A stretch of 39,935 nucleotides of DNA from the IMG/VR virus record IMGVR_UViG_2711768011_000006. One strand, written 5' to 3'. Both the position numbers and the translations under genes were made by a program. The first letter of the stretch is position 1. The number at the start of each line of letters is the position of its first letter. The notes beneath the pieces are model-generated. The model ran no database searches. It saw only the letters and a program-made list of their open reading frames with translations, and had not been told where the DNA came from. The DNA is from a virus. Lineage: Duplodnaviria > Heunggongvirae > Uroviricota > Caudoviricetes. This document shows, in pieces, positions 307-39,782 of the stretch.

Positions 307-626
307 TCCCGTTACCTTCCGGGATCAAAATTTGGCTGGTTGCCGGTATCACCGATATGAGAAATGGCTTCAACGGCCTGGCTGCGAAAGTACAGACGGC
401 GCTGAAAGACGATCCCATGTCCGGCCATGTTTTCATTTTCCGGGGCCGCAGCGGCAGTCAGGTTAAACTGCTGTGGTCCACCAGTGACGGACTGTGCCTC
501 CTGACCAAACGGCTGGAGCGTGGGCGCTTCGCCTGGCCGTCAGCCCGTGATGGCAAAGTGTTCCTTACACAGGCGCAGCTGGCGATGCTGCTGGAAGGTA
601 TCGACTGGCGACATATAACCAGGTGA
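303..626 (+). CDS. tnpB: IS66-family TnpB (orf2); C-terminus altered and terminated at the prophage junction
   Basis: Translation MIPLPSGIKIWLVAGITDMRNGFNGLAAKV...FIFRGRSGSQVKLLWSTSDGLCLLTKRLERGRFAWP matches the conserved IS66 Orf2 pattern. The ORF ends ...DWRHITR with a TGA at 624-626, directly abutting the Mu-like end repeats. Confidence 0.85.
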   Translation: MIPLPSGIKIWLVAGITDMRNGFNGLAAKVQTALKDDPMSGHVFIFRGRSGSQVKLLWSTSDGLCLLTKRLERGRFAWPSARDGKVFLTQAQLAMLLEGIDWRHITR

Positions 627-629
627 ATC

Positions 630-787
630 ATTTGATACCGACAAGGGGTTTAGTGAAAGGAGGTGAAATCACCTGTAAGATACTGAAATAAAACAGGTGA
701 TGGCTAGATGTGCGGATAAGGTCTATTTGATACCGATTGTGCAATAATTAGTCATTTATTATAAAATCGGCAACTCATTTGATACTG
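630..787 (+). repeat. attL-like transposase-binding repeats (three direct copies of ATTTGATAC(C/T)G at 630-641, 725-736, 777-787)
   Basis: Three near-identical 11-12 bp motifs spaced 95 and 52 bp apart, comparable to Mu L1/L2/L3 spacing. The reverse complement of the same motif occurs at the right end (39165-39176, 39198-39204). Confidence 0.6.
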
Positions 788-859
788 TGGTTTTAGTCTT
801 TTAAGGCGTTCCAAACAATGCGAAATACTCGATATAGTGCAAAATGCGGGCTAATGCTA

Positions 860-1405
860 TTAACCCGCTTTTGGTTCTACCGCGTTAGATTTGCGACTTC
901 TCTCAGTTTCTTCCAAAATCTCTCTGACGCGTTCGTCAGACATACCTTCAAGCTGTAATGCAGCTATTCTTTTCCTTCCTTCTAAGCGGATTAGATCTTG
1001 ATTTTCAGGCTCTAACAACCGAGCTAAGTACTTGGCTCCATTCAGAACCAAATTTTTCGATAGCTGCTCTAAGTCTTTTTCATCAAGTGCGCTGATAATC
1101 GTCATAATTATCTTCTTGCTTTCATCTTGATTTTCCTTGATCTCACACCGATTCACTTGTGATGCATCACTGAATCCACATAGCCACTCAACACTTACTC
1201 CTTCGATAGACGCAATCTGAAGGGCGACACTTAAGGATGGCTCAGTGCCACGAGACAGATAATTGTTTAGTGTTGAAAATGAAAGCCCCCAATCTCTTGC
1301 TGCAGCTCTGACGCTGCGGGAGCCAATCAGCCTTTTCAGACGCTCAGCAATGCTTTCTTTTCTACCACCAGGAAAAGAAAGAGATGTTGTTGTTTGCTTG
1401 TTCAT
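860..1405 (-). CDS. Putative prophage repressor (Mu c-like position), HTH DNA-binding protein
   Basis: 181-aa ORF divergent from ner/A/B at the left end. N-terminal HTH-like segment (SVRAAARDWGLSFSTLNNYLSRG). ATG start with the divergent operator region upstream. Confidence 0.6.
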   Translation of the reverse strand: MNKQTTTSLSFPGGRKESIAERLKRLIGSRSVRAAARDWGLSFSTLNNYLSRGTEPSLSVALQIASIEGVSVEWLCGFSDASQVNRCEIKENQDESKKIIMTIISALDEKDLEQLSKNLVLNGAKYLARLLEPENQDLIRLEGRKRIAALQLEGMSDERVREILEETERSRKSNAVEPKAG

Positions 1406-1590
1406 TTTCTTTTCTTCCTATCAATTTGAAATTATTAACTTTTAGTGTTGTCAGCAACCATTGATCCACAATAGACAAAAGAAAGATGTTTTTTTTGCTT
1501 TACATGAAGCAGAAGTGGATCAATACTTATATCAAACTTGATAACTAAGTTTAGTTATCAAATTTCGTAACTTTTTAGGATAGATGAATC
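1406..1590. promoter_or_regulatory. Divergent early promoter/operator region between repressor and ner
   Basis: AT-rich 185-bp intergenic region. Contains a 24-bp near-perfect palindrome TTGATAACTAAGTTTAGTTATCAA (1538-1561), an inverted pair ATTGATCCAC (1460-1469) / GTGGATCAAT (1516-1525), and a sigma70-like TTTACA (1499-1504). Confidence 0.5.
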
Positions 1591-1821
1591 ATGGCGAGAA
1601 ATGAAGTTAAGCCTGATTGGCATCCTCAAAGAATTTTGGGGGAAGTCAGAGCCAGAGAAGGAAGCATGAGGGCGCTGGCCCGTAAAGCTGGCGTGGGTCA
1701 GAACAATCTGTACAACGCGGTATACCGCCATGTTCCCAAGTATGAGGGGATTATCGCGGAATGCCTGGGGGTGCCGCCCGAGGAGATTTGGCCCAGCCGC
1801 TACATTCGTAAGGTCGCGTAA
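1591..1821 (+). CDS. ner: Ner-like DNA-binding early regulator
   Basis: 76 aa, first gene of the rightward early operon. Contains the Ner-type C-terminal motif EEIWPSRY and a DWH motif near the N-terminus. Confidence 0.85.
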   Translation: MARNEVKPDWHPQRILGEVRAREGSMRALARKAGVGQNNLYNAVYRHVPKYEGIIAECLGVPPEEIWPSRYIRKVA

Positions 1822-1823
1822 TT

Positions 1824-3911
1824 ATGTTTGCTTCAGTTAAAGAACTGGTTGGATTACCGGGGATGCCGGGAACGGAGCAAGGCGTTCGCTATTCAATCAG
1901 GAAGTATGCAACCAGCGAAACCAGCAGACGCCGCAAGAAAGGCGCTAAAGGTTTTGAATACAGCATTGACTGTTTACCTGAAGTGACACAGCAGGCATTA
2001 CGCGAACGTTATGCCCTGCAACTGATGACGCAAAAAGCCGATGAATCACCGGCTCCGGTGGTGACAAAGGCCAGACGCTCGTCTGCCGTGGTTGATGCGG
2101 TGGAGGCATATCGCGGATCACCACAACTGATGGTCGAACGCCTCAATGCCCTGACTGAAAACCAGCGCCAGGTGGCAGACGCACGCATTGCGATCGTCAG
2201 TGAGGTGCTGAAATTCACGCAACAACCCGGTTTCAGCTGCGCTAAAGCTATCCGGTTCCTCGTTAACAGCCTGGCACGATCACAACTGGACGAGCGCATT
2301 GTGGCAATGGTTGAGACGGCGAACGCCAAAAAGGGAAACAGCCGCGCGTTGAGTGAAATCACGCTGAAACGCTGGATTGCGGCCTTTAACAAGGCACAGA
2401 ACGCCGCTGAACGCCTGCTTTTACTGGCACCGGGTAAACGCCAGGAAATAAAAGCCGAAGATATTAACTGGCTGCCCGAATTTCTGGCGCAGTATCGCCA
2501 GTCAAACGGCCGACCAATGACCGAGGCTTACGAGGATTTTGTTGCTGAATGGCAGCACCGGCACGCTGATGAGCCTTATATGCTCGATATCATGCCCTCT
2601 TATGACACCATTCGCCGCGCAATGAAGAAACTGCCGGAAGTGGTGAAACAAAAAGGCCGGGTAACTGGCAGTGAATACCGTCAGCTTGAGGGATTCACGC
2701 GCCGCGACTGGTCCAGAATGCCGGTGAATTATGTCTGGATTGGTGACGGTCACGGCATGAAGCTGAAATGCGCGCACCCGGTTCACGGGCGGCCATTCGC
2801 ACCGGAAGTGACCTTTGTTATCGACGGTGGCACGCGCTTTGTGGTGGGCTGGAGCCTTGACCTGGCTGAAAATGTTTTCGCCGTAGCCGGTGCCATACAG
2901 CACGGTATTCGCCATCATGGCAAACCGTTTCTGTATTACTCGGATAATGGCTCCGGGGAAACCGCCGACGTCCTGGATAAGGAGATTGTGGGGATACTGC
3001 CACGACTGGGGATTAATCACCCGACAGGGATTGCCGGTAATCCGCAGGGACGGGGCATTATCGAACGGCTTAACCGCACATTACCGATGCGCATAGCCCG
3101 TAAATACCGCACCTATTTCGGGAAAGGAGCAGATCGCGAGACGTTACGTAAAACCAACCGCGATTTACGCTCGGCATTCAGTGCCCTGCAACAGGGCAAA
3201 CGGCTGAACGCCCGGCAGCAGTCAGCGATGCGTGATTTACCGTCCTGGTCTGAACTGATTGATGCCATTCGTGACGGTGTTGAGTGGTACAACAACCGGC
3301 CGCACGATGAATTACCCATGAAGCCGAACGGTAAACATTACAGCCCGGCGGAGTTCAGAAAAAAACGCCTGGCGGAAGAGGACACGGAAATTGAATGGCT
3401 GTCCGATGTTGAACTGCGGGATATGTTCCGGCCGATGGTGGAGCGCCCTGTAAGACGCTGTGAAATACGCTGGCTGAATAATATTTACTACGCGCCCGAG
3501 CTGCGTGACGAGCATGGCCGTAAGGTACTTATCAGCTATGACATTCATGATGCCGAACGAATTACCGTGCGCCGCCCGGATGGCAGCGTGATTTGCGAGG
3601 CGGTATGGGACGGCAATAAACGCGAAGCCTTCCCTGTCAGCGCGGAATACTACAAACAGCAGCAGCGCCTTAAAGGCATGCGTAAACGCGCAGAGGAAAA
3701 AATCCGTGATGCCGAGGATGAGGTTGTCAACGTGCTGGAGCACAAGCCGCAGGAGCCCTGGCTGGAAAACATATACCGCCCTGTGGGTAATACGGTGACC
3801 GTTCAGCAACCGGTCGCTGACGATGAACCTGATGAAGAATACGAGCGTAATTTCCAGCGGGGATTGCAACTGCTCGAAGCGAAATTAAAAGAAAGTGATC
3901 CGCTGGCCTGA
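1824..3911 (+). CDS. A: Mu-type DDE transposase A
   Basis: 695 aa directly after ner. Central catalytic core resembles MuA (WIGDGHG...YYSDNGSGE...GNPQGRGIIERLNRT). Size and position match MuA. Confidence 0.95.
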   Translation: MFASVKELVGLPGMPGTEQGVRYSIRKYATSETSRRRKKGAKGFEYSIDCLPEVTQQALRERYALQLMTQKADESPAPVVTKARRSSAVVDAVEAYRGSPQLMVERLNALTENQRQVADARIAIVSEVLKFTQQPGFSCAKAIRFLVNSLARSQLDERIVAMVETANAKKGNSRALSEITLKRWIAAFNKAQNAAERLLLLAPGKRQEIKAEDINWLPEFLAQYRQSNGRPMTEAYEDFVAEWQHRHADEPYMLDIMPSYDTIRRAMKKLPEVVKQKGRVTGSEYRQLEGFTRRDWSRMPVNYVWIGDGHGMKLKCAHPVHGRPFAPEVTFVIDGGTRFVVGWSLDLAENVFAVAGAIQHGIRHHGKPFLYYSDNGSGETADVLDKEIVGILPRLGINHPTGIAGNPQGRGIIERLNRTLPMRIARKYRTYFGKGADRETLRKTNRDLRSAFSALQQGKRLNARQQSAMRDLPSWSELIDAIRDGVEWYNNRPHDELPMKPNGKHYSPAEFRKKRLAEEDTEIEWLSDVELRDMFRPMVERPVRRCEIRWLNNIYYAPELRDEHGRKVLISYDIHDAERITVRRPDGSVICEAVWDGNKREAFPVSAEYYKQQQRLKGMRKRAEEKIRDAEDEVVNVLEHKPQEPWLENIYRPVGNTVTVQQPVADDEPDEEYERNFQRGLQLLEAKLKESDPLA

Positions 3912-3984
3912 AATAAAAAAATAACCCGAGGGGTGACTCAGGTTATTTGAGGTTTCAGTCTCGGAGAATGCTGTCTCAAGCGAG

Positions 3985-4926
3985 GTGAATAATATGACCG
4001 ATATTAACGATGTAATCAAGACCATTGATGAACTTATTGATGGCGGCGTACTGACGCAGTATGCCATCGCCAGAGAGGCGGGAATTTCCGACGGCACATT
4101 ATCGGCTTTCCGTAAGGGAAAATATAAAGGCGATAACGCTGCTGTGGCTGCTTCCCTGCGCTCCTGGTATGAGAACTGGAATAAACAAAGCGCACTGCCG
4201 GAACCGCCGCAGTTTGTGGAAACTCAGACAGTCCAGGAGCTGCGCGCACTGTTTCAGGCGGTTCGCCTGATGGGCTGTATTAACGTTATTGTGGGCGTAC
4301 CGGGTGTGGGTAAAACGGCCACTGCCCGTAATTACTGCCAGGAGCAACCAAACACCTGGATGATCACCCTGTCACCCGCGCACTCCAGCGTCACGGAGTG
4401 TCTGCTGGAGCTGGCCGATGCGCTGGGGATTGATTACACCCGCGCGAACAAAGGGGCATTATCCCGCGCCATCCGCCGTCGCCTGATGGGAACGCGTGGA
4501 CTGGTGATTGTGGATGAGGCGGATCATCTTGGTATTGACGGTCTGGAGCAACTCCGGGCAATTCAGGACGCCACGGGGATCGGGATGGTGCTTATTGGTA
4601 ACCCGCGCGGATTGTTTAAAGGTGGACGCCGCGCCTTTGATGATTTATCGCGCCTGTTCAGCCGTCTTGCCCGTACAAAACAACTTCGCAAGGCCAAAAA
4701 GGCGGATGTGCTGGCCATTGCCATGGCGTGGGGGATCAGTGGTGAGGCCGAGCTGGCCGTCATGCAGGCTATCGCTGAAAAGCCGGGAGCGTTACGCGTT
4801 CTGACACATACGCTTAACCAGGCGTGGCTCACCGCCAGCGGTGAAGGCGCGGCGCTGACAGAAAAACATATTAATGCGGCCTTTAAAGAGGTTTATACCA
4901 ACCCTGAATTACTCTCACAGGTGTGA
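3985..4926 (+). CDS. B: Mu B-type transposition ATPase / target DNA activator (GTG start at 3985; alternative ATG at 3994)
   Basis: Walker A motif GVPGVGKT. N-terminal HTH-like region. Strong co-linearity with Mu B (PEPPQFVETQTV, VIVDEADHLG, KPGALRVL). Confidence 0.95.
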   Translation: MNNMTDINDVIKTIDELIDGGVLTQYAIAREAGISDGTLSAFRKGKYKGDNAAVAASLRSWYENWNKQSALPEPPQFVETQTVQELRALFQAVRLMGCINVIVGVPGVGKTATARNYCQEQPNTWMITLSPAHSSVTECLLELADALGIDYTRANKGALSRAIRRRLMGTRGLVIVDEADHLGIDGLEQLRAIQDATGIGMVLIGNPRGLFKGGRRAFDDLSRLFSRLARTKQLRKAKKADVLAIAMAWGISGEAELAVMQAIAEKPGALRVLTHTLNQAWLTASGEGAALTEKHINAAFKEVYTNPELLSQV

Positions 4927-4928
4927 TT

Positions 4929-5150
4929 ATGGCGGTATTTAATATTCCTGATATTTACGGACGCTTTTACCTGGTTAATTTCGATAACGTGAAGGTGATT
5001 TCACTGGCCGAAAATAAAGAATGTGGCGATTTACTTTTTGAATTTAATGACCGCACACGAATGGTGATATCTGCCGGACTTGATCGCGAAGGTGCGACAG
5101 AAGTTTACAGCGGAATATGCCGTTCTGTTGGTGCGAAACAAGTCAGCTAA
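4929..5150 (+). CDS. Hypothetical small early protein (kil-region position)
   Basis: ATG at 4929 just after the B stop; 73 aa. Position corresponds to the Mu semi-essential early region. Confidence 0.45.
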   Translation: MAVFNIPDIYGRFYLVNFDNVKVISLAENKECGDLLFEFNDRTRMVISAGLDREGATEVYSGICRSVGAKQVS

Positions 5151-5162
5151 ATGAGGTGTTAT

Positions 5163-5417
5163 ATGAATATGCAATCCTGCGGTAACAAAATGAATTTATT
5201 CGACTCCCTGAACAGCGCGCGCCGTCTGACCGAACTTGCCGGTGCGGTACTGGAACGCAGTAAGCGCTATCCGCAACGTTTTGCACTGAAAACCACGCCG
5301 CCGGTAGGCAACGTGCAGGGAACCGGTGAAATTGAAATCACCATACAGACCAACGGCCTGCGCCGCCGTGTGAAGGCCACCCGCATCAGCGGCTGCACGG
5401 TTTACTGGGAGGTGTGA
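5163..5417 (+). CDS. Hypothetical small early protein
   Basis: ATG at 5163 preceded by GAGG (5153-5156); 84 aa. In-frame alternative ATG at 5151. Confidence 0.4.
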   Translation: MNMQSCGNKMNLFDSLNSARRLTELAGAVLERSKRYPQRFALKTTPPVGNVQGTGEIEITIQTNGLRRRVKATRISGCTVYWEV

Positions 5418-5418
5418 G

Positions 5419-5700
5419 GTGAAAAAAAATCTCATTGCATGGGCGTGGTCGAGTGGTCTTATTGAGTTTGGTTACGTCCTGCCGGAAGGTGCATTGCCGA
5501 TAGTTGCCGGAAAGCCTGCCACGGTACGGCATGTGATTGAGGTTATGGCGCGTCATGGACGTGATGAACAGGAGCAGTTACTGGTTCCGGGGATACCGGA
5601 AGCGGTGACGGAGGAAGAAGCCTTTAATGCCATGATTCGGTTCTGCCGTGAGGTTAGACGCCGGGTCAGTTATCCAAACAGAACGAGGACCAGAGGATGA
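5419..5700 (+). CDS. Hypothetical small early protein
   Basis: 93-aa ORF with GTG start, tightly packed (overlaps next gene by 4 nt). Confidence 0.45.
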   Translation: MKKNLIAWAWSSGLIEFGYVLPEGALPIVAGKPATVRHVIEVMARHGRDEQEQLLVPGIPEAVTEEEAFNAMIRFCREVRRRVSYPNRTRTRG

Positions 5701-5969
5701 GTAAAGTCGTACGCATTATTTTCGAATACAAGGAAGATGTTATCTGCAAAAACTCTGATGGCAGCACGCACAGAGGGGTAAGTCTGGATATACGTTCAAC
5801 CGGAATAAAGAAGAAAGATAATGGACCCGCCATGATTTTTGGGGTGGTTATGCTGGCAGAAAGCAGAAACTTCGCAGAGTTTGTGGCAATGAAAGCCAGT
5901 GCATTCATGAAAGACAGAGGCATGGCTTCCGGGGTTATTAACGGTAATGAATTTAATCAACAGGGGTAA
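5697..5969 (+). CDS. Hypothetical small early protein (paralog 1, starts MSKVVRIIFEY)
   Basis: ATG with upstream GAGGACCAGAGG. N-terminus is similar to the next ORF (MSKVRVIFEF). Confidence 0.5.
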   Translation: MSKVVRIIFEYKEDVICKNSDGSTHRGVSLDIRSTGIKKKDNGPAMIFGVVMLAESRNFAEFVAMKASAFMKDRGMASGVINGNEFNQQG

Positions 5970-5973
5970 TTCC

Positions 5974-6267
5974 ATGAGCAAAGTACGCGTTATTTTTGAA
6001 TTTAATCATGTTTCGCATGACGAAAAGTTGGCAGGCAATGACTGTGTTGAAGTGCATGAAAAGATTGGAGTGGATGTGAAAACAGAACGTGATACGGATA
6101 ACAGGCCGACGTCACTCTGTGACGTTTATGCAAGTATTCTCCAGTATCACAGTCCTGCAATTATTCAGTTTCTCTCAGCGGAATTTCAGGCATCTGCACA
6201 GTCTTTTGGAGCGGATGCCATCATTAAACGCCACCGCGTGCATAAAGCATCAGGCACACTGCAATAA
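5974..6267 (+). CDS. Hypothetical small early protein (paralog 2, starts MSKVRVIFEF)
   Basis: ATG at 5974 preceded by AGGGGT. N-terminal similarity to the upstream ORF suggests tandem duplication. Confidence 0.5.
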   Translation: MSKVRVIFEFNHVSHDEKLAGNDCVEVHEKIGVDVKTERDTDNRPTSLCDVYASILQYHSPAIIQFLSAEFQASAQSFGADAIIKRHRVHKASGTLQ

Positions 6268-6278
6268 GGAAAAACAAA

Positions 6279-6809
6279 ATGGCTAAACGCGTTACAAAAT
6301 TAAAGGCCGCAGCCGAGGCGGCACCGCAGACCCGGGAAGAAGTCAGCCGTGATATCCGCACCCTGGGAGATATTCAGCGAGAGGCGCTGCGCCTGGAAAC
6401 GGCGATGAATGACGAAGTGGCAGAAATCACCGCCCGTTATACGCCGCAGATTGAAAATCTTAAAAAGCAAATCAAAGTGCTTTTTAAAGGGATTCAGGAC
6501 TGGTGCAAAACCAACCGTGATGAGCTGACGAACGGCGGCAAAACCAAAACAGCCAATCTGACCACCGGAACGGTGTCATGGCGGCTGGGAACGCCATCAT
6601 GCAGCGTCAGCCGTGATGTGGAAGGTGTGATTGAAATGCTGCGCCGTATGGGGCTTGAGCGTTTCATCCGCACGAAAGAGGAAGTGAACAAGGAAGCCGT
6701 CCTGGCGGAGCCGGATGCTGTGAAAGGCATTGCCGGTATCAAGGTGAATAAAGGCGCTGAAAGTTTTTATGTCGAGCCTTTTGAACAGGACGCCGGACTG
6801 AATAAATAA
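6279..6809 (+). CDS. gam: Gam-like host-nuclease inhibitor (Ku-like DNA end-binding protein)
   Basis: 176 aa. Strong co-linearity with Mu Gam (LRLETAMNDEVAEIT, NRDELTNGGKTKTANLTTGTVSWR, RFIRTKEEVNKEA, PFEQDAG). Confidence 0.9.
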   Translation: MAKRVTKLKAAAEAAPQTREEVSRDIRTLGDIQREALRLETAMNDEVAEITARYTPQIENLKKQIKVLFKGIQDWCKTNRDELTNGGKTKTANLTTGTVSWRLGTPSCSVSRDVEGVIEMLRRMGLERFIRTKEEVNKEAVLAEPDAVKGIAGIKVNKGAESFYVEPFEQDAGLNK

Positions 6810-6954
6810 CACCGCATTAATCAATTAAATATCACTTCATTTTAATTATGGCGCTCGCGTCAGGGGACTGCTTGCGCCTGAAAACAGAAAATAAGGGTTA
6901 AGAAATATGAAATACGTTTATATCGTCATTAATAATGTGGTGGGGAAATAAATC

Positions 6955-7488
6955 ATGATTGATGCAAAAGTGCTTGAAGGGGTTAAAAACTGGCTGTGTA
7001 TTTATGGCCGCCTGACCTGCGGTGTACTGGCTGAAAAAATGAATATGCCGCCATCCTCCATGGTTTATTTTCTGCGTGATGCGGTTGATGCAGGCGTGCT
7101 GACGGAATGTAACGGTTTTTATGATATTCCGCGTCCCCGCCCGGTGCAGCCGGTTCGTCGCAAATGCAGCCAGGAATCTGCGGCTGATGATGTTCAGTGG
7201 TGCGGCTTCAGAAAATCCCTGCCATGGATTGAGGGGCATGATATTCCGTCGATGGCGTGGGAATTTGCTCAGGGCGTTCTGACCTGTGAAACCGTTTATG
7301 TGGTGGCTGAAGTTGATGAGCAGGCCATGAAAGAAGGCGTGCCCCAGTTTGTGATGGCGTATATCGACATACGCCTGGGCGTCATTATCTGCGGTTTAAG
7401 CGGCTGGAATATCACTGAACATGTTCTGCGCTACCTGATTGTTGACCGGACAGCAGCGCCTGCCGGGATATCTGCGGAGGTGGCGTAA
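6955..7488 (+). CDS. Hypothetical accessory early protein
   Basis: 177-aa ORF with ATG start. Preceded by a 14-codon mini-ORF (6907-6951) and a 145-bp AT-rich gap. Confidence 0.5.
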   Translation: MIDAKVLEGVKNWLCIYGRLTCGVLAEKMNMPPSSMVYFLRDAVDAGVLTECNGFYDIPRPRPVQPVRRKCSQESAADDVQWCGFRKSLPWIEGHDIPSMAWEFAQGVLTCETVYVVAEVDEQAMKEGVPQFVMAYIDIRLGVIICGLSGWNITEHVLRYLIVDRTAAPAGISAEVA

Positions 7489-8003
7489 TGTTCTTTAAAA
7501 CATCAAACCCTTCCGCGCTGGCTGCGTGGCAAAAATACCAGCAGGACTGCCAGAAAGTTAAGGATGAGGCAAAACGCCTTGAGGCCGTGCTGAATGTTGC
7601 GTGCCGGTCGGTATTTGTATCCGGTATCAGTGGATTTTACTTTAAGGGACTGCGTTTTACGGAGGACAAATATCCTTTTCATCGCGACTTATGGCGAAAA
7701 CCGACTGCGTCGAATGGCTGGAGCTGCACACCGCGCACATCACGTATCCCTAAAACCCTGCGTGTTGCCTCTGATGAACTGAACAGTCTGTGGCGTGAAT
7801 ATTCGCCCGTCACGTATGCCAGAACCGATGCGCTGTTGTTCTGGTTGGGTATTGATTTCTCGGCAATCCTGTTTGGCCCTGTGAAGTGGTTCTGCGTTGA
7901 CGATGTGATTTACCTTCAGTGCGGCGTAAAACCCGCAAAACAGAAAATGACCGAAATACTGTCTGATGAGTTTTATGCTGCTGAAAAGCGAGTCAGGGGG
8001 TGA
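7488..8003 (+). CDS. Hypothetical accessory early protein
   Basis: 171-aa ORF; start overlaps the previous stop. Confidence 0.5.
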   Translation: MFFKTSNPSALAAWQKYQQDCQKVKDEAKRLEAVLNVACRSVFVSGISGFYFKGLRFTEDKYPFHRDLWRKPTASNGWSCTPRTSRIPKTLRVASDELNSLWREYSPVTYARTDALLFWLGIDFSAILFGPVKWFCVDDVIYLQCGVKPAKQKMTEILSDEFYAAEKRVRG

Positions 8004-8006
8004 TGC

Positions 8007-8558: not shown

Positions 8559-8887
8559 TAACGACCTTATTTGTTGAATCAGATGAACCTCTTGTGTGTG
8601 CCGCCGGAATGCCGCTCTGTGGCGGAACGCTGACCGGCGTTTATTTCGGGGATTTGCGCGGTTATCCCTGGCATTCACTGGATGACGCATTTCCGCCTGA
8701 TATGGAGGCTGTCGTGCTGATTGTTCAGTATGGTGACCAACAGGAACTGCGCATCGGCCATATGGGGTATGAAGGCTTTTTTATTGATGAAGAAACCGGA
8801 GCCTGCCTTGAAGATGAGGACGGACAGGTGACGCACTGGTGCCATCTTTCGGCCTTGCCGGAATTACAGGGGATACATAATGGATGA
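8555..8887 (+). CDS. Hypothetical accessory early protein
   Basis: 110-aa ORF; ATGA overlap with the previous gene and ATGGATGA overlap with the next small ORF. Confidence 0.5.
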   Translation: MITTLFVESDEPLVCAAGMPLCGGTLTGVYFGDLRGYPWHSLDDAFPPDMEAVVLIVQYGDQQELRIGHMGYEGFFIDEETGACLEDEDGQVTHWCHLSALPELQGIHNG

Positions 8888-31704: not shown

Positions 31705-32255
31705 CCCTGACCCCGCATCAGCGCGCCCTGTTGCAGTTACTGCCTGACGGGCTGGCATGGGACAAGCGTCCGTCATCCGTACTGGCATCATTATGTCTGG
31801 GCCTCAGTCATTCGACAGCGCGTGTATCCTGGACGGGTAAACAGCTGCTTGCCGAGCGTTTCCCTGACACGTCGCGCCTGCTGCTGGAAGACTGGGAGCG
31901 TTATCTCGGGCTTCCCGAGTGTGATATGGCCGGAGCCACCCTCACGGAGCGACAGCGTTATGCCGGAAATAAATACCGGATGAAGCCCTCGCTGAACCGT
32001 GAATTTTATATCCGGTTTGCGGCGGAGTTTGGTTATCAGATTGACATTCAGCCCTCACCGGATTCGCAGTGGGTCAGTATTGTCACGATTAACAGTGAAA
32101 CCGGCTACCGGAATATGAATGTGCTGGATGATATTCTCACGCCGCTGCGTATTTATGAAGGCGGTGCGCTGGAATGTATTCTGAACCGTTATAAGCCTGC
32201 ATGGCAGACGTTTATTTACGTTTATGCAAACAGCCATGAAGAGGAGACTATTTAA
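31695..32255 (+). CDS. Tail protein (Mu gp48-like)
   Basis: 186 aa directly upstream of the tail fiber gene. Confidence 0.7.
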
Positions 32256-33136
32256 TGTTTCATGTTGATAATAATTCCGGCGTGGCGAATATGCCTGCGC
32301 TGGCACCGGCGCAGAGTAATACCACCACCTGGTTTACCGAAGGTGACGGACAAAAAGGTATCAGCTGGATTGGTCAGGACTGGCTGAATATTCTCCAGGC
32401 CGAACTGCTGAATATTCTGGCTGAAGCCAGTATTCAGCCGGATAAGGCGCAGTTAAACCAGCTTACGCTGTCCATTAAAGCCATTATCGCTGCGAATGCC
32501 TTTTCCCGGAAAAATAACCTGAAAGAAATTGCTGATGCCGGTGCGGAGGCCCAGCGTCTGGCCCGTGGTTATCTTGGTCTGGGGACGCTTGCCACAAAAA
32601 ACAGTCTTGGTCCCGCTGACGTTAATGCCCTGGCGAAGGATCAGAATCTCGCCGACCTGGAGAATAAGGGAACCGCCCGTAATAATCTGGATGTTTACAG
32701 CAAAAGCGAAGGTGATAACCGTTACCTGCGCAGGGAGCAGAACGGCGCAGACATTCCGGATAAAGGGGCTTTTATCGATAACGTCGGTTTACGGGAAACG
32801 GTAAACAGGGCGGCGAATGCCCTGCCATCGGACGGCACCGCCGTTGCCGCGAACAGGCTGGCAAATGCCCACACAATTAATGGTGTTCCCTTTGACGGGA
32901 CGCAGGATATCACTATCTCATCAGGAACAGTAACCGCCATAAGACTGGGGTCGGTGACCGCACATATGCCCGGAACATGGGAAAGCTGGGATCTGAATCT
33001 GGGGGGCGGCAATGTTCTTACCGGAATTAAAGTACAGGATGTCGGTAAGAATACGGCAGATAACGTCGGCGGCGTGTATTACCGGCCGTTGCAGTATCTG
33101 TTAAATGGAGCATGGGTGACGGCTGCAAGTATATAA
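32255..33136 (+). CDS. Tail fiber protein (constant N-terminal part to about 32785 plus currently expressed variable C-terminal part)
   Basis: 293 aa. The 3' third lies inside the invertible segment; the gene crosses the left crossover site and the 68-bp inverted repeat. Confidence 0.8.
32772..32797. promoter_or_regulatory. gix-like recombination site (left): TTATCGATAACG-TC-GGTTTACGGGAA
   Basis: 26-bp site with 2-bp core. Right half-site is identical to the reverse complement of the left half of the right-hand site. Overall resembles the Gin gix site (TTCCTGTAAACC GA GGTTTTGGATAA) as recalled from memory. Confidence 0.55.
32786..32853 (+). repeat. Inverted repeat, left copy (68 bp), internal boundary of the invertible segment
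   Basis: Reverse complement of 34033-34100 with one mismatch. Encodes the shared residues [23 protein letters not shown] in both fiber variants. Confidence 0.85.
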
Positions 33137-33144
33137 TGATATTC

Positions 33145-33168
33145 AGAAGGCCTTCCGGCCTTCTTTAT
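33145..33168. terminator. Hairpin between the convergent tail fiber and tail fiber assembly genes (AGAAGGCC-TTCC-GGCCTTCT followed by TTTATT)
   Basis: 8-bp perfect stem with 4-nt loop, flanked by a T-run on the plus strand. Confidence 0.55.
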
Positions 33169-33689
33169 TACTGTGGCTGCTCAGGCCATTTAATGGCGTT
33201 AAATTCAGCTTCTGTTTTAATGGCGGGTAGTTCCATTTTCTTCACCTGACTGATGTATGCCATCCATTGGGTAAGTGCTGCTCTGTCTTCATCGCTGATG
33301 GTGCCCAGTTGTAGCTCCGTTCTCCAGTCATTAATTTTTTCATATGCCTGATTAAGATATGACTGGCGCATTGCTTCCAGTTTTCTTGCGTAGTTAACCG
33401 GAATACGGGAGATTATGCCATTATCAAACTTCCAGTTTCCTGAAATATCCGTGCCTTCAGGGAGTTCATCGACCTCAACCACAGAAAACCCCGCAGGATA
33501 CAGCGCCGAGGCGTCCTGTGATATTGAGCAGATAACGCCGCTGTCAGGTGTTATGCAAAGTTTATATTTTTTGGTGAATAATGGCAGGGATTCGTAGAAA
33601 TCCTTACCATCTTCACTCTGGAAATACTGAACATTATTACCATATGGCATATTTTCAGGATAATAACGGGTTATATTTTTTAGTTCCAT
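33168..33689 (-). CDS. Tail fiber assembly protein (chaperone for the alternative fiber C-terminus; Mu U'-like position)
   Basis: 173 aa inside the invertible segment on the opposite strand, immediately downstream of the alternative fiber C-terminal segment. Confidence 0.75.
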   Translation of the reverse strand: MELKNITRYYPENMPYGNNVQYFQSEDGKDFYESLPLFTKKYKLCITPDSGVICSISQDASALYPAGFSVVEVDELPEGTDISGNWKFDNGIISRIPVNYARKLEAMRQSYLNQAYEKINDWRTELQLGTISDEDRAALTQWMAYISQVKKMELPAIKTEAEFNAIKWPEQPQ

Positions 33690-33740
33690 AAAATCCTCCT
33701 GGAAATAAATCTGTTTTAAAATATATTATTTACTGACTAT

Positions 33741-34100
33741 TTATAACTGAGATACCGTAATCCATGTACCTCCGACTAATTTTTGCAGGGGTCTGAATGC
33801 TATAAAATCGTTTGAAGCATCAACTTTACTGTCAATCTGCAGGCCTGCCATAACATTACCGTACGCAGAGTAATATGCCCCACCGTACATTACCTGCCTG
33901 TTCTCTGCTCCCAGCCTGATATCCTGGATATATCGGGAATCCGCATCCTGCTGTGTTATACCAGAAGTGATGTTTATGTCCTGCGTCCCGTCAAAGGGAA
34001 CCCCATTAATATTTCTTGGGGTGGCGAGTCTATTCGCGGCAACGGCGGTGCCGTCCGATGGCAGAGCATTCGCCGCCCTGTTTACCGTTTCCCGTAAACC
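33741..34100 (-). other. Alternative tail fiber C-terminal coding segment (no start codon of its own; would be fused to the constant fiber part after inversion)
   Basis: Minus-strand frame continuous with the inverted repeat reads [47 protein letters not shown]...WITVSQL then stop. Its first residues are identical to the current fiber at the repeat and then diverge. Confidence 0.65.
34033..34100 (-). repeat. Inverted repeat, right copy (68 bp)
   Basis: Reverse complement of 32786-32853 with one mismatch. Confidence 0.85.
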
Positions 34101-34114
34101 GAGGTTTTCAGGAA
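34089..34114. promoter_or_regulatory. gix-like recombination site (right): TTCCCGTAAACC-GA-GGTTTTCAGGAA
   Basis: Near-palindromic 26-bp site. Differs from the recalled Mu gixL at 1 position in the left half. Confidence 0.6.
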
Positions 34115-34179
34115 AGCCAGGATTAACTCTGTTTTATTCCTCATGCGACAATTCCGGCTTTTTATAATAAGGAAATCGT

Positions 34180-34752
34180 ATGCTGATTGGGTATATCAGG
34201 GTGTCAACAAATGACCAGAATACGGCGCTACAAAGAAATGCGCTGGAATGTGCAGGATGTGAGCTGTTTTTCGAAGACAGAATAAGCGGTAAGACAAGGG
34301 AGCGTCCCGGACTTAAACGCGCATTAAAGCGACTCCGGCCAGGGGATACCCTGCTGGTCTGGAAACTGGATCGCCTTGGACGCAGTATGCAGCACCTTGT
34401 CCTTTTAACAGAAGAACTCCGGCAACGCGGCGTTAACTTCCGCAGCATTACGGACAATATTGATACATCCACTCCCATGGGACGTTTCTTTTTCCATATA
34501 ATGGGCGCGCTGGCGGAAATGGAGCGGGAACTCATTATTGAACGTACACGCGCGGGTCTTGCTGCTGCCCGTGCTCAGGGGCGTCATGGCGGCAGACCTC
34601 AGAAACTGACAGAGAAAGAGCGGGAGCAAATCGCCCGTTTGCTGGCTAATGGCGAGTCCCGTAAACAAATCGCACTGATATTTGATATTGGCCTTTCCAC
34701 CCTTTATCGTTATTTTCCTGCCTCACCAGCTCCGTCACCAAAAGTACCGTGA
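34180..34752 (+). CDS. gin: Site-specific DNA invertase, serine recombinase (Gin/Pin/Hin/Cin family)
   Basis: 190 aa. N-terminal catalytic region (MLIGYIRVSTNDQNTALQ...WKLDRLGRSMQHLV) and C-terminal HTH (GESRKQIALIFDIGLSTLYRYF). Sits adjacent to the invertible segment as in Mu. Confidence 0.95.
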   Translation: MLIGYIRVSTNDQNTALQRNALECAGCELFFEDRISGKTRERPGLKRALKRLRPGDTLLVWKLDRLGRSMQHLVLLTEELRQRGVNFRSITDNIDTSTPMGRFFFHIMGALAEMERELIIERTRAGLAAARAQGRHGGRPQKLTEKEREQIARLLANGESRKQIALIFDIGLSTLYRYFPASPAPSPKVP

Positions 34753-34837
34753 CGCTTTTTTGAATTTCCGCAAAACACATATTTTTCAGCGGTCGCTATT
34801 CTGACTCTGTTTAATTCAGAAACAGGCAGAAAAGACG

Positions 34838-36892
34838 ATGTCAGACTCCAAGTGGAAAATGCTCTCCGCCATGCCCGGAGAGTTTTCAGTCAAGGTTGCC
34901 GGTGGCACGGTGGCATTTATTGAAAGCCCTTTCCGCCCTTCGGGTAATAAAGGGGGGATCACCTTCGCAGACTGCGTGATCCGCTTCAGCACGAAAGAGC
35001 CATTATGGGTAATGCCGGTATCCGGTAATCCCAGTGCAGAAATCACCAGTTCAGGCGTGACTGGCATCATTCCAATCACATCTGACGTGGCCGGAACGCT
35101 CACGCCCTCCGACTGGAATGCACCGGATAACGCCGGGCCTTCCGGTAGCACGAATGGCAGCAGTTCAGAGCCGGAATATTACTTTGTTGTCATTCTCGCG
35201 GGTCAGTCAAATGGCATGGCCTACGGCGAGGGGCTGCCGTTACCGGATTCGTTTGACCGCCCGGACCCACGCATTAAGCAACTGGCACGCCGCAGTACGG
35301 TAACGCCCAACGGTACGTCGTGTACATACAACGACATCATTCCGGCAGACCACTGCCTGCATGATGTTCAGGATATGAGCGGGATAAACCACCCGAAAGC
35401 TGATCTGGCAAAAGGCCAGTACGGGACTGTCGGTCAGGGGTTGCATATTGCCAAAAAACTGCTTCCCTATATCCCACAGAATGCCGGGATACTTCTGGTG
35501 CCCTGTTGTCGTGGCGGGTCAGCATTCACCACTGGAGCCGACGGCTCATTCAGTGAGGCCAGCGGTGCTTCCGCTGATTCTTCACGCTGGGGGGCCGGTA
35601 AACCTCTGTATCAGGACCTGGTAAGCCGCACCAAAGTCGCGCTGGCGAAAAACCCGAAAAACAAACTTCTGGCTGTGGTCTGGATGCAGGGAGAGGCAGA
35701 CCTTGCCTCAGGAAGCCAGCAGCATAATAGTTTATTCACGGCCATGGTTCAGCAGTTCAGAACTGACCTGGCTCCGCTTGCTGCGCAGTGCGTGAGTGGA
35801 AATGCCACCACGGTGCCGTGGATTTGCGGTGATACCACGTATTACTGGAAAAACGCTGGCACCGATAAATATGAGGCAGTATACGGTGGCTACAAAGGCA
35901 AGGAAGCACAGAAAATTTTCTTTGTACCGTTCCTGACGGATGAGAATGGACAGAGCACGCCAACGAATGCTCCGGCGGAAGACCCGGATATTGTGGCTGT
36001 CGGGTATTACGGTGCAGCATCCCGAACCCAGGGCAGTTTTGTTTCGACACAGCGTGACAGCCATTTCAGCTCATGGGCACGCAGGGGCGTCATTTCAGAC
36101 CGTCTGGCCTCAGCTATTATGCTCCATGCAGGGCGCACGGCTGAACTGATGCGTGGGCAGACCGTGACACCACCGGATGAGAAGCCGTCACCTGATACAC
36201 CATCAAAACCGTCCACGCCACCCGCAGACACCACGACGATGAGTACGCTATTTGCTTACCGGGCATCTGAGTCTGAAGGACGGTTGACACCACAGGGTTG
36301 GGCTGCCGGAGGTGGCAAGGCTCAAATCGTGGATGATGCCGGAGCCAGCGGGGGTAAGGCAATGAAACTGACCAAGGAAACAGGAAGAGCCCCCTGGTAC
36401 CTTGAGCATGATGCTGGTAATGGTGCGGACCTGCTGGGTAAAGGTGGTCTTGTCAGTTGTCGTTTTAAACTCGATGGCGCGCTTACGGCTAATCAGTACG
36501 CACTGGCGCTGTACTGGCCGGTTTCTGCCCTGCCGCAAGGGGTTACTCTGGAAGGAAATGCCGGTCATAACCTGCTGGCATCGTTCTACGTACAGAGCGA
36601 TGCCACAGACCTTAACGTGATGTATCACAAAGGAAACACGGCGCAGAACACGAAGCTGGGGTCATTCGGCGCATTTAATAACGAATGGCATACGCTGGGC
36701 TTCCGTTTTGCCGGTAACAACAGTATTGAGGTGACGCCGGTCATTGATGGTAAGGACGGGACACCATTCATGCTGTCGCAGTCTCCGGTCGGCACGTTTA
36801 CGGCAGACAAGTTGCGCGTGACCGATATCACTAAAAATGCGACTTACCCGGTACTGATTGACAGTATCGTGGTGGAAGTGAATAACGCGTAA
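34838..36892 (+). CDS. Multidomain SGNH-hydrolase / sialate-O-acetylesterase-like protein with Pro/Thr-rich linker and C-terminal beta-sandwich-like domain
   Basis: 684 aa. The block YYFVVILAGQSNGMAYGEG matches the GQSN-type catalytic block of the SASA carbohydrate esterase family. A PDEKPSPDTPSKPSTPPADTTT linker follows. Not part of the canonical Mu gene set. Confidence 0.6.
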   Translation: MSDSKWKMLSAMPGEFSVKVAGGTVAFIESPFRPSGNKGGITFADCVIRFSTKEPLWVMPVSGNPSAEITSSGVTGIIPITSDVAGTLTPSDWNAPDNAGPSGSTNGSSSEPEYYFVVILAGQSNGMAYGEGLPLPDSFDRPDPRIKQLARRSTVTPNGTSCTYNDIIPADHCLHDVQDMSGINHPKADLAKGQYGTVGQGLHIAKKLLPYIPQNAGILLVPCCRGGSAFTTGADGSFSEASGASADSSRWGAGKPLYQDLVSRTKVALAKNPKNKLLAVVWMQGEADLASGSQQHNSLFTAMVQQFRTDLAPLAAQCVSGNATTVPWICGDTTYYWKNAGTDKYEAVYGGYKGKEAQKIFFVPFLTDENGQSTPTNAPAEDPDIVAVGYYGAASRTQGSFVSTQRDSHFSSWARRGVISDRLASAIMLHAGRTAELMRGQTVTPPDEKPSPDTPSKPSTPPADTTTMSTLFAYRASESEGRLTPQGWAAGGGKAQIVDDAGASGGKAMKLTKETGRAPWYLEHDAGNGADLLGKGGLVSCRFKLDGALTANQYALALYWPVSALPQGVTLEGNAGHNLLASFYVQSDATDLNVMYHKGNTAQNTKLGSFGAFNNEWHTLGFRFAGNNSIEVTPVIDGKDGTPFMLSQSPVGTFTADKLRVTDITKNATYPVLIDSIVVEVNNA

Positions 36893-36906
36893 GCAGGATA
36901 AAAAAA

Positions 36907-36950
36907 TGCCGCCGGTAAGGGAAAACAAGAAACCGGCGGCAAAAAGATCG
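36907..36950. terminator. Hairpin downstream of the esterase gene (GCCGCCGGT-15 nt loop-ACCGGCGGC) flanked by A-runs
   Basis: 9-bp GC-rich perfect stem. The flanking A-runs would be T-runs for the minus strand, so this may act bidirectionally. Confidence 0.4.
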
Positions 36951-37036
36951 TTATATCCAAAGCAAAAAATGCAGTGCACCTTTTTACCTAACAGATATTA
37001 CCGGTGTCAACACCATGTCAATAATTGGGAGGGATA

Positions 37037-37219
37037 ATGACATTTTTACAGCTTATTTTATTGTATTTCTGCACGGCAGTATGTGCGTTATATCTGGTGA
37101 GTGGTGGTTATAAGGCCATCAGAAATTATGTTCGCCGCAAAATTGAGGACGCAGCAGCTGAAAAACTCAGTAAAACAGCGCAGGTAACTCCGCTCCCAAA
37201 AGACCCGACCCAGCCCTGA
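37037..37219 (+). CDS. Small membrane protein (single N-terminal transmembrane helix)
   Basis: ATG at 37037 preceded by GGGAGGG; 60 aa. Hydrophobic N-terminus (FLQLILLYFCTAVCALYLVSGG) followed by a charged tail. Confidence 0.4.
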   Translation: MTFLQLILLYFCTAVCALYLVSGGYKAIRNYVRRKIEDAAAEKLSKTAQVTPLPKDPTQP

Positions 37220-37254
37220 TTGCAGGGCTTTATTCCCGCATAAGGAGGATATAC

Positions 37255-37509
37255 ATGCCAGAAATTAAAGGCACCGTCACTGAAGACCTGGTAAAACAGG
37301 CACTGTATTCCGGTGAAGTAAATAAGTTGCTGAAAGCGCAGGTCCGCAAGGATTTTGAGGCACAAATCGACACTTACGTTGATGAAGTGCTGGCAAAACT
37401 TATTGGGCCAGCAGTTGCGGCCAGTGATGCTGATAATGAGCCGAAAACCGACGCGCAGCCAGAGCAACCAGACCCGGCTCAGCCCGGAACTGACAGTACC
37501 ATGATGTAA
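37255..37509 (+). CDS. Small acidic hypothetical protein
   Basis: ATG at 37255 with strong ribosome-binding site (AAGGAGG) 7 nt upstream; 84 aa, acidic Pro-rich C-terminus. Confidence 0.5.
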   Translation: MPEIKGTVTEDLVKQALYSGEVNKLLKAQVRKDFEAQIDTYVDEVLAKLIGPAVAASDADNEPKTDAQPEQPDPAQPGTDSTMM

Positions 37510-37676
37510 CAATACAAACCGGTGGTGTCCTCTGCCGGTTTGACACTAATGAAAACATCTTTGCCGCTATCCAGCCATATGTAATCGCTGGATAGTATTT
37601 CGTATTCAGAAATATAGCTGCTTATGGAGCAGTCAATCCTGCTTCCCCATCCGGGCAGGCAAATGAACCGGTATCA

Positions 37677-37970
37677 TTAGTCCGATTCACGCTTTTGTAG
37701 AATCGTTCCCAGAATGCTATACAGCTCATTAGCCTGTTGCTCCATCATTGAGACGGAGGCTATACGGTGCAAAGTGATTTCAGGAGGTGGCACACCTCCA
37801 TCTTCTTGCTGTGGAGGAAAAACATAAGATTTAATAAAAAAGTTGAAGCATATGAACTCTCCCGCACTCGAACTGTATTTGCAGGCATCTGAATAATCGG
37901 AAAAATAATCATTATAGATTTCCGCATTTTCAATCATTTTTCGATTTCTCGTCGTTACATGATTGTCCAT
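37677..37970 (-). CDS. Hypothetical protein on the minus strand in the AT-rich cargo region
   Basis: 97-aa ORF in a region of much lower GC content than the phage body. Confidence 0.4.
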   Translation of the reverse strand: MDNHVTTRNRKMIENAEIYNDYFSDYSDACKYSSSAGEFICFNFFIKSYVFPPQQEDGGVPPPEITLHRIASVSMMEQQANELYSILGTILQKRESD

Positions 37971-38162
37971 AGCAGCCTCTTACGCTGGCAATTAACCAAT
38001 TGACTTCTATAAATTAGTTGATTTGTTTGCTTTGCGGTATTCAAATGTACAATCATTCAGCACTTATGCGTTACAGCACCGTTTAAAATTAGTGATCAAA
38101 CTCATAAATTTTCGCTAATGACATTTCGTGTTATTTGTTGTATCAATTAAATAAATCAAATC

Positions 38163-38179
38163 GATCGTTTTTGTCGATC
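38163..38179. promoter_or_regulatory. Clustered GATC (Dam) sites upstream of com-mom (38163-38166 and 38176-38179) within the direct repeat TCGATCG-N6-TCGATCG
   Basis: Two GATC sites 13 bp apart about 50 bp upstream of the com start. In Mu, mom transcription is controlled by Dam methylation of upstream GATC sites. Confidence 0.4.
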
Positions 38180-38226
38180 GATTGAGTGATAAAGATATCA
38201 ACAACAAAGCAGGAGGTTATGCGGCC

Positions 38227-38427
38227 ATGTATCGAAACATACGGTGCCGACATTGTAACAAGCTACTGGCACGAGCCAGCTTCAGTTATCTGGAAGTTAA
38301 ATGTCCGCGCTGTAAAACCCTCAATCAAATCACATCTCAGAGCGCCACAGAGCACCCCACATACACAAGGAAATCCTGTCGTGGGGAACAGAAAGCAAGT
38401 TACATCCCGTATCATCAGCACGCCTGA
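38227..38427 (+). CDS. com: Com-like zinc-finger translational activator of mom
   Basis: ATG at 38227 with AGGAGG 10 nt upstream. Translation [35 protein letters not shown] resembles Mu Com (two CxxC pairs). Overlaps the 5' end of the mom frame. Confidence 0.8.
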
Positions 38428-39118
38428 ACTTATTCACTATAACGACAATATCGTCGGTTATGGCTCCCGTGAGTTACGGGTTGAGACAATAAGTTGCTGG
38501 CTGGCCCGGCTGGTCGTCGTCAATAAACATTACAGCCATCGTTTCGTAAATAATTCCTACCTTCATCTGGGCATATTTTCAGAACGGGAGCTGGTTGGCG
38601 TAATGCAATGGGGTTATGCCCTTAATCCAAACAATGGTGCACGCGTCGTAACTGGCACGCAGAACCGCGAATATATGGAGCTTAACCGGTTATGGCTGCA
38701 TGACTGTATGCCGAGAAACTCCGAATCAAGGGCAATCAGTTACGCGCTCAAACTAATCAGACAACTTTATCCGCAGGTGCAGTGGGTTCAGTCGTTTGCA
38801 GATGAGCGTTGTGGCTGTCTTGGTGTCGTGTACCAGGCAAGCAATTTTGATTATGTAGGCAGTCATGAAACAACATTCTATGAACTTGATGGCGAGTGGT
38901 ATCACGAGATTTGCAAGAATGCAATCAAACGAGGAGGACAGCGAGGTGAACATCTGCGGGCTAATATCGACAGAGCCAGTGTTCATAAATTCCGTCAGTT
39001 TCGTTACATCCGGTTTCTGGACAAGAGAGCCAGAAAACGCCTTAACACAAAGCTATTCAAAGTCCAGCCTTACCCAAAACCACAAACAGTTAAAACTGGT
39101 TTGAAAGAGAGTGAATGA
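38381..39118 (+). CDS. mom: Mom-like DNA modification protein; start uncertain (GTG at 38381 chosen; frame is open from 38186)
   Basis: Long ORF overlapping the com 3' end in another frame, as in Mu. Sequence ([18 protein letters not shown]...FADERCG...[10 protein letters not shown]) resembles Mu Mom as recalled. No in-frame ATG exists between com and the conserved region. Confidence 0.8.
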
Positions 39119-39164
39119 ACGCTTAAAAACTCATTCTAAAACTCAAAAGAAAAGCGCCGATTTA

Positions 39165-39204
39165 GTATCAAATAAGTTGCGTATCGGCGTTTTTCAGCGG
39201 TATC
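39165..39204 (-). repeat. attR-like transposase-binding motifs (reverse complement of the left-end motif); terminal site truncated by the N gap
   Basis: GTATCAAATAAG (39165-39176) is the reverse complement of CTTATTTGATAC. CGGTATC (39198-39204) is the reverse complement of GATACCG and abuts the N run. Confidence 0.5.
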
Positions 39205-39453
39205 NNNNNNNNNNNNNNNNNNNNNNNNNNNNNNNNNNNNNNNNNNNNNNNNNNNNNNNNNNNNNNNNNNNNNNNNNNNNNNNNNNNNNNNNNNNNNNNN
39301 NNNNNNNNNNNNNNNNNNNNNNNNNNNNNNNNNNNNNNNNNNNNNNNNNNNNNNNNNNNNNNNNNNNNNNNNNNNNNNNNNNNNNNNNNNNNNNNNNNNN
39401 NNNNNNNNNNNNNNNNNNNNNNNNNNNNNNNNNNNNNNNNNNNNNNNNNNNNN
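39205..39453. other. Assembly gap (249 N)
   Basis: Continuous run of N. ORFs translated across it (39111-39470, 39194-39748) are artefacts. Confidence 1.
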
Positions 39454-39745
39454 CCAGTGGCCGGCGCTGACGTACTATGCAGATGATGGCTGGGCTGAGG
39501 CGGACAATAACATCGCTGAAAATGCGTTGCGGATGGTCAGTCTGGGCCGCAAAAACTACCTGTTCTTCGGTTCGGATCATGGAGGAGAGCGGGGAGCGCT
39601 GCTGTACAGCCTGATCGGGACGTGCAAACTGAACGGAGTGGAGCCAGAAAGCTACCTCCGCTATGTCCTTGACGTCATAGCCGACTGGCCGATAAACCGG
39701 GTCGGCGAACTGCTCCCCTGGCGCGTAGCACTGCCGACTGAATAA
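39454..39745 (+). CDS. tnpC: IS66-family transposase TnpC, C-terminal fragment (5' part lost in or before the gap)
   Basis: Frame open from the gap edge: QWPALTYYADDGWAEADNNIAENALRMVSLGRKNYLFFGSDHGGERGALLYSLIGTCKLNGVEP..., the conserved C-terminal block of IS66 transposases. Confidence 0.8.
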
Positions 39746-39782
39746 CACATTCCCGTCAATACGGTTCTTGCTGCACGCTTAC
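39454..39782 (+). mobile_element. IS66-family element, right portion, ending with terminal repeat ...CGCTTAC at 39782
   Basis: tnpC 3' end followed by about 37 bp ending in GCACGCTTAC, the reverse complement of the IS66-type terminus GTAAGCG. Confidence 0.6.

Follow-up and report, generated by a model that had tools for sequence, protein, structure and literature searches.

How a Mu-like prophage came to lie between two pieces of an IS66-family insertion sequence (IS), and whether that IS was still functional when it was entered, are the questions raised by IMG/VR record IMGVR_UViG_2711768011_000006. The 39,935 nucleotides analysed (the window) are the entire public scaffold CWVS01000029.1 of assembly GCA_001260095.1, a short-read draft of Shigella sonnei, the species also named as source on the records of the fused TnpB and the tail-fibre fragment described below. 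A preliminary description had read the sequence as a Mu-like prophage bracketed by IS66-family sequence, and this is borne out, as IS66 segments at 106–613 and 39454–39782 flank a phage that starts at 614. Very probably the arrangement is a simple phage insertion into tnpB of an IS66 copy that was already dead, in S. sonnei. The exact left junction, the genes of the phage and the identity and co-linearity of the flanks with an uninterrupted allele are observed directly; the right junction and its 4-bp duplication are predicted.

The left junction

Matches to IS66 end at 613 and matches to the phage, in many genomes, start at 614. The phage left end (TATAACCAGG...) is placed at 614, where all independent copies start, and not at 603 as first proposed; independent E. 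coli copies begin TATAACCAGGTGAATC at the equivalent base. The IS66 segment at 106–613 (plus strand) corresponds to positions 273–780 of a 2,442-bp element and is 99.6% identical to the copy on pAA of E. coli O104:H4, and 100% identical to S. sonnei contigs and to S. sonnei 53G. It holds the 3' part of tnpA (stop 304–306) and tnpB from 303 (Pfam TnpB_IS66, E=1e-37), cut in codon 104 of 115. The tnpB frame indeed reads into the phage end, as had been noticed: the open reading frame (ORF) at 303–626 (plus strand) encodes a fusion of 107 residues, TnpB', in which 103 of the 115 TnpB residues are followed by HITR and a stop (624–626) supplied by the phage. Exactly this product is on record in about 108–110 S. 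sonnei assemblies. It marks one S. sonnei sublineage, for which the junction could serve as lineage marker, and it carries a warning for annotation, the 107-residue 'TnpB' deposited for these genomes being a truncated IS66–phage fusion.

The assignment of tnpA/tnpB to the whole of 1–626 holds for 106–613, but 614–626 is phage and 1–105 is the 3' end of IS600 (plus strand; IS3 family, 1264 bp when complete), with the orfB stop at 61–63 and the right terminus ...ACACCTCA at 105; RefSeq labels the sequence matching 1–105 as IS600-family transposase. A complete 1264-bp IS600 with ends TGAGGTAGCC...ACACCTCA lies at this exact place, flanked by GCT, in CP176614.1 (locus L009, 8542–9805) and in 53G (L114). 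The GCT at 106–108 of the window is the right copy of the 3-bp IS600 target duplication in IS66 tnpA, L009 having GCT on both sides, and the uninterrupted tnpA site in L010 reads ...AAAGCTGCTATTACC.

The empty site and the state of the IS66 copy

On the other side of the phage, 39454–39782 (plus strand) is, as first described, the IS66 3' end (positions 2114–2442). It carries the last 96 tnpC codons with their stop at 39743–39745 and the right inverted repeat ...CGCTTAC ending at 39782, is 99.1–99.4% identical to the pAA element, and its 96-residue product matches Pfam DDE_Tnp_IS66 and DDE_Tnp_IS66_C. Parts of the IS66-type gene order tnpA-tnpB-tnpC (DDE) are present in the window, and the order itself is seen in uninterrupted copies.

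The decisive comparison is with the complete chromosome of S. sonnei 53G (L114), in which window 1–613, including the IS600 end, is found at 2499–3111 with 613 of 613 bases identical, and window 39454–39935 at 3365–3846 with 481 of 482 identical. Both flanks are there on the same strand of one uninterrupted element, 253 bp apart, in a locus that runs from an IS110-family element through tnpA', IS600, the rest of tnpA, an intact tnpB (115 residues) and a 152-residue TnpC remnant to a tail-fibre remnant. The complete chromosome CP176614.1 (GCA_046272205.1), whose left junction is at about 1,015,140 and which must also contain the right one, agrees with 53G at 99.87% upstream of the junction; at IS66 position 780 this agreement ends and phage sequence takes over, so 53G represents the empty site of the window insertion. 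The same empty deletion allele, with an intact tnpB and beside the same tail-fibre fragment, is found in S. sonnei contigs L050–L053, which both window parts match at 100%. That the two IS66 parts come from one element, co-linear and in the same orientation, is upheld by these matches and by the identities to the pAA copy.

The flanks are only 253 bp apart in 53G because the S. sonnei IS66 already had an in-frame deletion of 1080 bp (360 codons) in tnpC (L053 629–646; L114 3198–3656), between 18-bp direct repeats. The 152-residue TnpC remnant is the annotated Ss046 'protein encoded within IS' (Q3YYZ0) and occurs on 674 contigs; full-length IS66 is kept at the same tail-fibre site in other S. 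sonnei assemblies (L048, L049). This deletion qualifies several points of the preliminary description. The flanks are co-linear with an element that is uninterrupted in the 53G allele, but against an intact IS66 there is no single breakpoint, as 1080 bp of tnpC are missing. The prophage does split the IS66, but what it separates from tnpA-tnpB is a 152-codon remnant and not a working tnpC. Moreover, the left inverted repeat of the S. sonnei IS66 lacks its first 9 bp; the truncation, at position 10, is common to all S. sonnei copies seen. The copy is inactive, as was stated, but not through the phage: it was dead beforehand, its left repeat truncated, its tnpA interrupted by IS600 and its tnpC deleted.

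Beyond the IS66 terminus, 39783–39935 (plus strand) is a fragment of a prophage tail-fibre gene, 99.3% identical to the gene in E. coli CFSAN029787 (L005 3001–3153); a matching S. sonnei protein is named 'prophage tail fiber N-terminal domain'. The gene is uninterrupted in CFSAN029787, and therefore IS66 had inserted into it. The bases GGTAAACA at 39783–39790 would be the 8-bp IS66 target: duplications of 8 bp are seen in the pAA and ISEc22 copies, while the IS66 left terminus, cut at position 10 in the S. sonnei relatives, is outside the window. An IS66 terminus at 39790 was considered and ruled out, the 8 extra matching bases being a chance similarity of two target sites. Short S. sonnei contigs with this tail-fibre fragment (L048–L057) all end within 3 bp of window 39935, some with TATGA and others with TACGA as last bases. 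This common end suggests a fork where repeated tail-fibre sequence of other prophages begins.

Target duplication

The target duplication of Mu is 5 bp, and one of 5 bp had been expected for this phage. This was not borne out. All ten independent insertions for which both flanks are available (L070/L060, L072/L064, L073/L042, L075/L043, L078/L068, L006, L007, L021/L019, L058/L059 and L114/L041) have a perfect 4-bp duplication directly outside constant phage ends (TGTT, CATA, TCTC, TAAT, TACC, GACG, TACG, AACA and TAGA, plus GCTG in 53G), and no register of the ten yields 5 bp. From this behaviour of the phage type, GACA at 610–613 is the predicted left copy of the window duplication, and its right copy would be in the scaffold gap. 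The 4-bp duplication of a widespread phage type is the only point that a transposition specialist might check.

The phage inserts at numerous unrelated sites, the copies examined having 30 different right flanks. The late 11 kb of the window phage are 99.97–99.99% identical to prophages at other chromosomal sites, and L009 (CP176614.1) is 99.99% identical to window 1–10627. With its many flanks, its flanking duplication and its Mu gene set, this phage type is a transposable phage in behaviour. Against its closest relative L039, in another strain and at another site, 28219–39204 differs by one base, a synonymous T/C change at 36154 in a gene for a 684-residue SASA/DUF6645 protein.

The scaffold gap and the right junction

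A complete phage like Mu and Sp18 (the latter of E. coli O157:H7 Sakai) would have entered tnpB at codon 104 by simple transposase-mediated insertion, in a S. sonnei sublineage whose IS66, already non-functional, is itself lodged in the tail-fibre gene of an ipaH-linked and degraded prophage. The proposed chromosome order would be IS600, IS66 273–780, the phage from left to right, the gap, IS66 2114–2442 and the tail-fibre remnant, and the gap would contain GACA and IS66 781–921 joined to 2002–2113. The gap itself, 249 N at 39205–39453, is a scaffolding gap already present in the public record, and this also disposes of the idea that the N run is a mask put in for the analysis.

The phage copies all end ...AAATGAAATGCAAATCGGTATCAAAAAAATCGCCGCGCTATA, and with the last 42 bp taken from more than 30 other copies the full prophage would be 38,633 bp long. 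The gap is accordingly predicted to hold 299 bp, namely the 42-bp phage end (AAATGAAATGCAAATCGGTATCAAAAAAATCGCCGCGCTATA), GACA and 253 bp of the IS66 deletion derivative, compared with the 249 N of the record; an intact IS66 (781–2113, 1333 bp) would bring it to about 1379 bp. The predicted right junction is ...AAAAAAATCGCCGCGCTATA-GACA-GCCTAAGCGGCTGCTGACC... and then the 253-bp stretch of IS66; at more length it would read ...GGTATCAAAAAAATCGCCGCGCTATA-GACA-GCCTAAGCGGCTGCTGACCTCCCTGACCATGCTGTAA..., through that stretch into CCAGTGGCCGGCGCTGACG at window 39454.

Several observations weigh against so tidy an insertion. The right junction, inside the gap, is not seen in any sequence examined, and the left contig breaks off 42 bp short of the phage right terminus, halfway through the second subterminal TTTGATAC repeat of that end. 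In the protein and contig collection there is no contig longer than 2.6 kb with the end-truncated tail-fibre product of 44 residues, and no gapless contig leading from phage through the IS66 3' end into the tail fibre. Nor is the predicted 58-residue junction ORF on record, in this or shorter versions, an absence that says nothing if no such ORF had been called. Finally, S. sonnei strains show every one of the four possible combinations of IS600 in tnpA and phage in tnpB: both in the window and L009, the phage with an uninterrupted tnpA in L010 (335–375), IS600 without a phage in tnpB in 53G (L114 1157–2800) and L053 (at its start), and neither in L050–52. A strictly clonal single-event history does not explain these combinations, which could be due to IS600 inserting repeatedly, to loss, or to an artefact in the assembly of CWZC01000017.1. 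Owing to the contig break, the missing gapless contig and the four combinations, there is a small but appreciable probability that the right side is less tidy or the join wrong.

No repeat or IS was found that would explain the contig break at 39204/39205. The left and the predicted right junctions gave no exact-pattern match in genome, viral or metagenome contig collections, where the clone is not represented; one scan of viral contigs used the pAA variant GCCCAAG, where S. sonnei has GCCTAAG.

That the phage entered at IS66 position 780 but left an untidy right side, through a deletion adjacent to the phage end, a rearrangement, or a later IS or IS-mediated deletion in the gap, we regard as improbable. 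The two IS66 parts would then share one locus without a single breakpoint and a 4-bp duplication. Two unexplained breaks would fit this, the left contig falling 42 bp short of the phage end and the right contig starting at IS66 2114, as would a gap 50 bp shorter than predicted and the speed with which S. sonnei gains IS, e.g. IS600 and IS1 at this locus. However, 249 N against 299 bp is well within the normal error of paired-read scaffolding, an IS of 768–1264 bp is too large for a gap of about 250 bp, and in ten of ten complete genomes the resident prophages of this type went in by simple insertion and are flanked by a 4-bp duplication. The two contigs are linked by nothing but a run of N in a short-read scaffold, and the right one, of 482 bp, is two-thirds IS sequence, with contigs of many unrelated E. 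coli assemblies beginning at the same tnpC point. A wrong join, with 39454–39935 coming from another IS66 copy or place and the true right flank being something else, is nevertheless very unlikely, since 53G has the same flanks in one element at a distance of only 253 bp, oriented as in the scaffold, and the gap estimate fits. A second IS66 copy behind the scaffold, covering 780/781, is disfavoured because the left contig runs unbranched from phage through 508 bp of IS66 into IS600. A related prophage in 53G does adjoin this tail-fibre gene at a point 624 bp downstream, without intervening IS66, but this is a different phage, with another repressor, the left end TGTAACC and its own GCTG duplication.

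There is, lastly, hardly any probability that the phage struck and inactivated an intact, active IS66, of which the gap would hide 1333 bp. Full-length copies do exist at this tail-fibre site in some S. sonnei (L048, L049), but the gap has 249 N where about 1379 would be needed, the 1080-bp tnpC deletion is present in the strains with which the window has IS600 in common (53G, L053), and all S. sonnei copies seen have a left inverted repeat cut at position 10. Simple insertion into a dead IS66 is in itself an ordinary event. Shigella genomes routinely contain nested mobile elements, this type of phage is a known one, and deposits of the fused gene already exist for about 108 assemblies. The locus shows S. 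sonnei stacking mobile elements, with an IS66 in a tail-fibre gene and both IS600 and a Mu-like phage in the IS66, and beyond such bookkeeping it adds little.

Organisation of the prophage

The Mu-like (Sp18-like) prophage occupies 614–39204 (plus strand) from its left end to the gap, as judged from Pfam domains of the window proteins and from near-identical prophages elsewhere. Domains of MuA, MuB, portal, MuF, gpT, sheath and the Gin-type invertase come from the window proteins themselves, while those of the Ner-like protein (HTH_35), Kil, Gam, GemA, Mor, baseplate, Com and Mom were taken from Pfam lists for identical DNA (L009/L010, and L028, which is the window itself). The early region comprises a repressor gene on the minus strand (860–1405), ner-like (about 1590–1820), MuA (1824–3911; HTH_Tnp_Mu_1 and Mu-transpos_C), MuB (3985–4926; AAA_22 and Phage-MuB_C), Gam (6279–6809), GemA (9603–10115) and Mor (10186–10608). 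Then follow lysozyme (10680–11180), the large terminase-like protein (13498–15165), a Mu-type portal (15165–16754), MuF (16738–18069), the major head protein (19975–20922), sheath (22583–24085), tape measure (25078–27135), baseplate (27122–32255), tail fibre (32255–33136), Gin (34180–34752; Resolvase/HTH_7 domains), Com (38227–38427) and Mom (38381–39118).

A G-segment-like invertible tail-fibre segment at 32777–34109 adjoins the Gin-type invertase gene and is bounded by 86-nt inverted repeats (32777–32862 and 34024–34109) whose arms are 93% complementary. Three subterminal TTTGATAC repeats stand at the left end (631–638, 726–733 and 778–785, plus strand), spaced 18/113/165 bp, and are presumed to be transposase-binding sites L1–L3. 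The right end has three inverted copies of the motif, at distances of 18, 40 and 75 bp from its terminus, R1 and half of R2 being in the gap. No IS insertions are seen inside the window's phage copy and its ORF sizes equal those of relatives; to judge from the sequence the prophage is probably functional.

No integrase is listed among the called genes of the L009/L010 and L028 DNA, and ARAGORN finds no tRNA anywhere in the window. RefSeq annotation of homologous prophages has a minus-strand 'tRNA-OTHER' between the Mu F gene and the G-like gene (L006 19144–19223; about 18070–18150 in the window).

Comparison with known elements

The closest intact IS66 among those compared is that on pAA, of 2,442 bp with GTAAGCG... 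inverted repeats and the 8-bp duplication AGTTGAAT. It shares the tnpA-tnpB-tnpC layout and is 99.1–99.6% identical to both window parts; one source names a product near-identical to that of the pAA element ISSfl4 ORF3. The S. sonnei copy differs in lacking the first 9 bp and 1080 bp of tnpC, in carrying IS600 in tnpA and in being split by the phage. ISEc22 is 99% identical over the last 330 bp, but its tnpA/tnpB are only 83.5% identical, which rules it out as the IS in question. The converse nesting, an IS66-family element inside a prophage of this type, is present in two E. coli genomes (L080 11009–13252, CP169402.1; L102 5226–7542, UGEP01000005.1).

The Mu-like prophage of 53G (HE616528.1) lies in the same species and the same degraded ipaH-linked remnant and differs in the late region at only 17 of 10,986 bases. 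However, its site is not in tnpB but 1.2 kb from the window's insertion, within the tail-fibre remnant, with GCTG as duplication, and it has a repressor of 176 residues, an immunity region with 78% DNA identity and the left terminus TGTAACC. It looks like an independent acquisition. That it could be the same prophage after a deletion at the phage end is ruled out by its intact tnpB, its own 4-bp duplication and its different immunity region. The 53G target (L114 4280–4420, L041 11029–11045) is 4 bp from the ten bases CCAGGTGAAT, a stretch identical to bases 6–15 of the phage left end. Two phages 1.2 kb apart in two lineages might mark the ipaH-linked remnant as a preferred landing zone for Sp18/Mu-like phages, which we consider doubtful; were it not chance, the choice of target would be regional or guided by homology to the phage end.

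Among known phages, Sp18 of E. coli O157:H7 Sakai is an intact-looking Mu-like prophage that occupies strain-specific sites (PMC2669165, PMC7430833). It and its E. coli relatives share with the window prophage the 38.6–38.8 kb size class, the gene order, the strain-specific location (PMC2669165, PMC7430833) and an invertible host-range segment with genes unlike those of Mu. The E. coli relatives include prophages up to 99.99% identical (11 kb compared) at other sites, and from Sp18, which was itself not aligned at full length, the insertion site is the only difference. At its mom end the window prophage is 96% identical to prophages of O157:H7, and the phage collection matches it best (92%) in 'Mu-like phage' regions of two Stx phage records, including LC727895.

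The likeness to Mu itself (Muvirus) lies in the MuA-type transposase, MuB, repressor/ner, kil, gam, gemA, mor, the Mu-type portal, gpF and gpT, in the contractile tail, the Gin-inverted tail-fibre segment and com-mom at the right end, and also in near-random insertion and three subterminal repeats per end spaced as in attL/attR. Among the matches listed from the phage collection, however, none is to Mu at the nucleotide level, and the phage type ends 5'-TATA (TGTA in 53G) ... TATA-3', in contrast to the TG...CA ends of Mu. If the targeting considered above were true, it would, together with a staggered cut of 4 bp rather than 5 bp, set the transposition of these phages apart from that of Mu.

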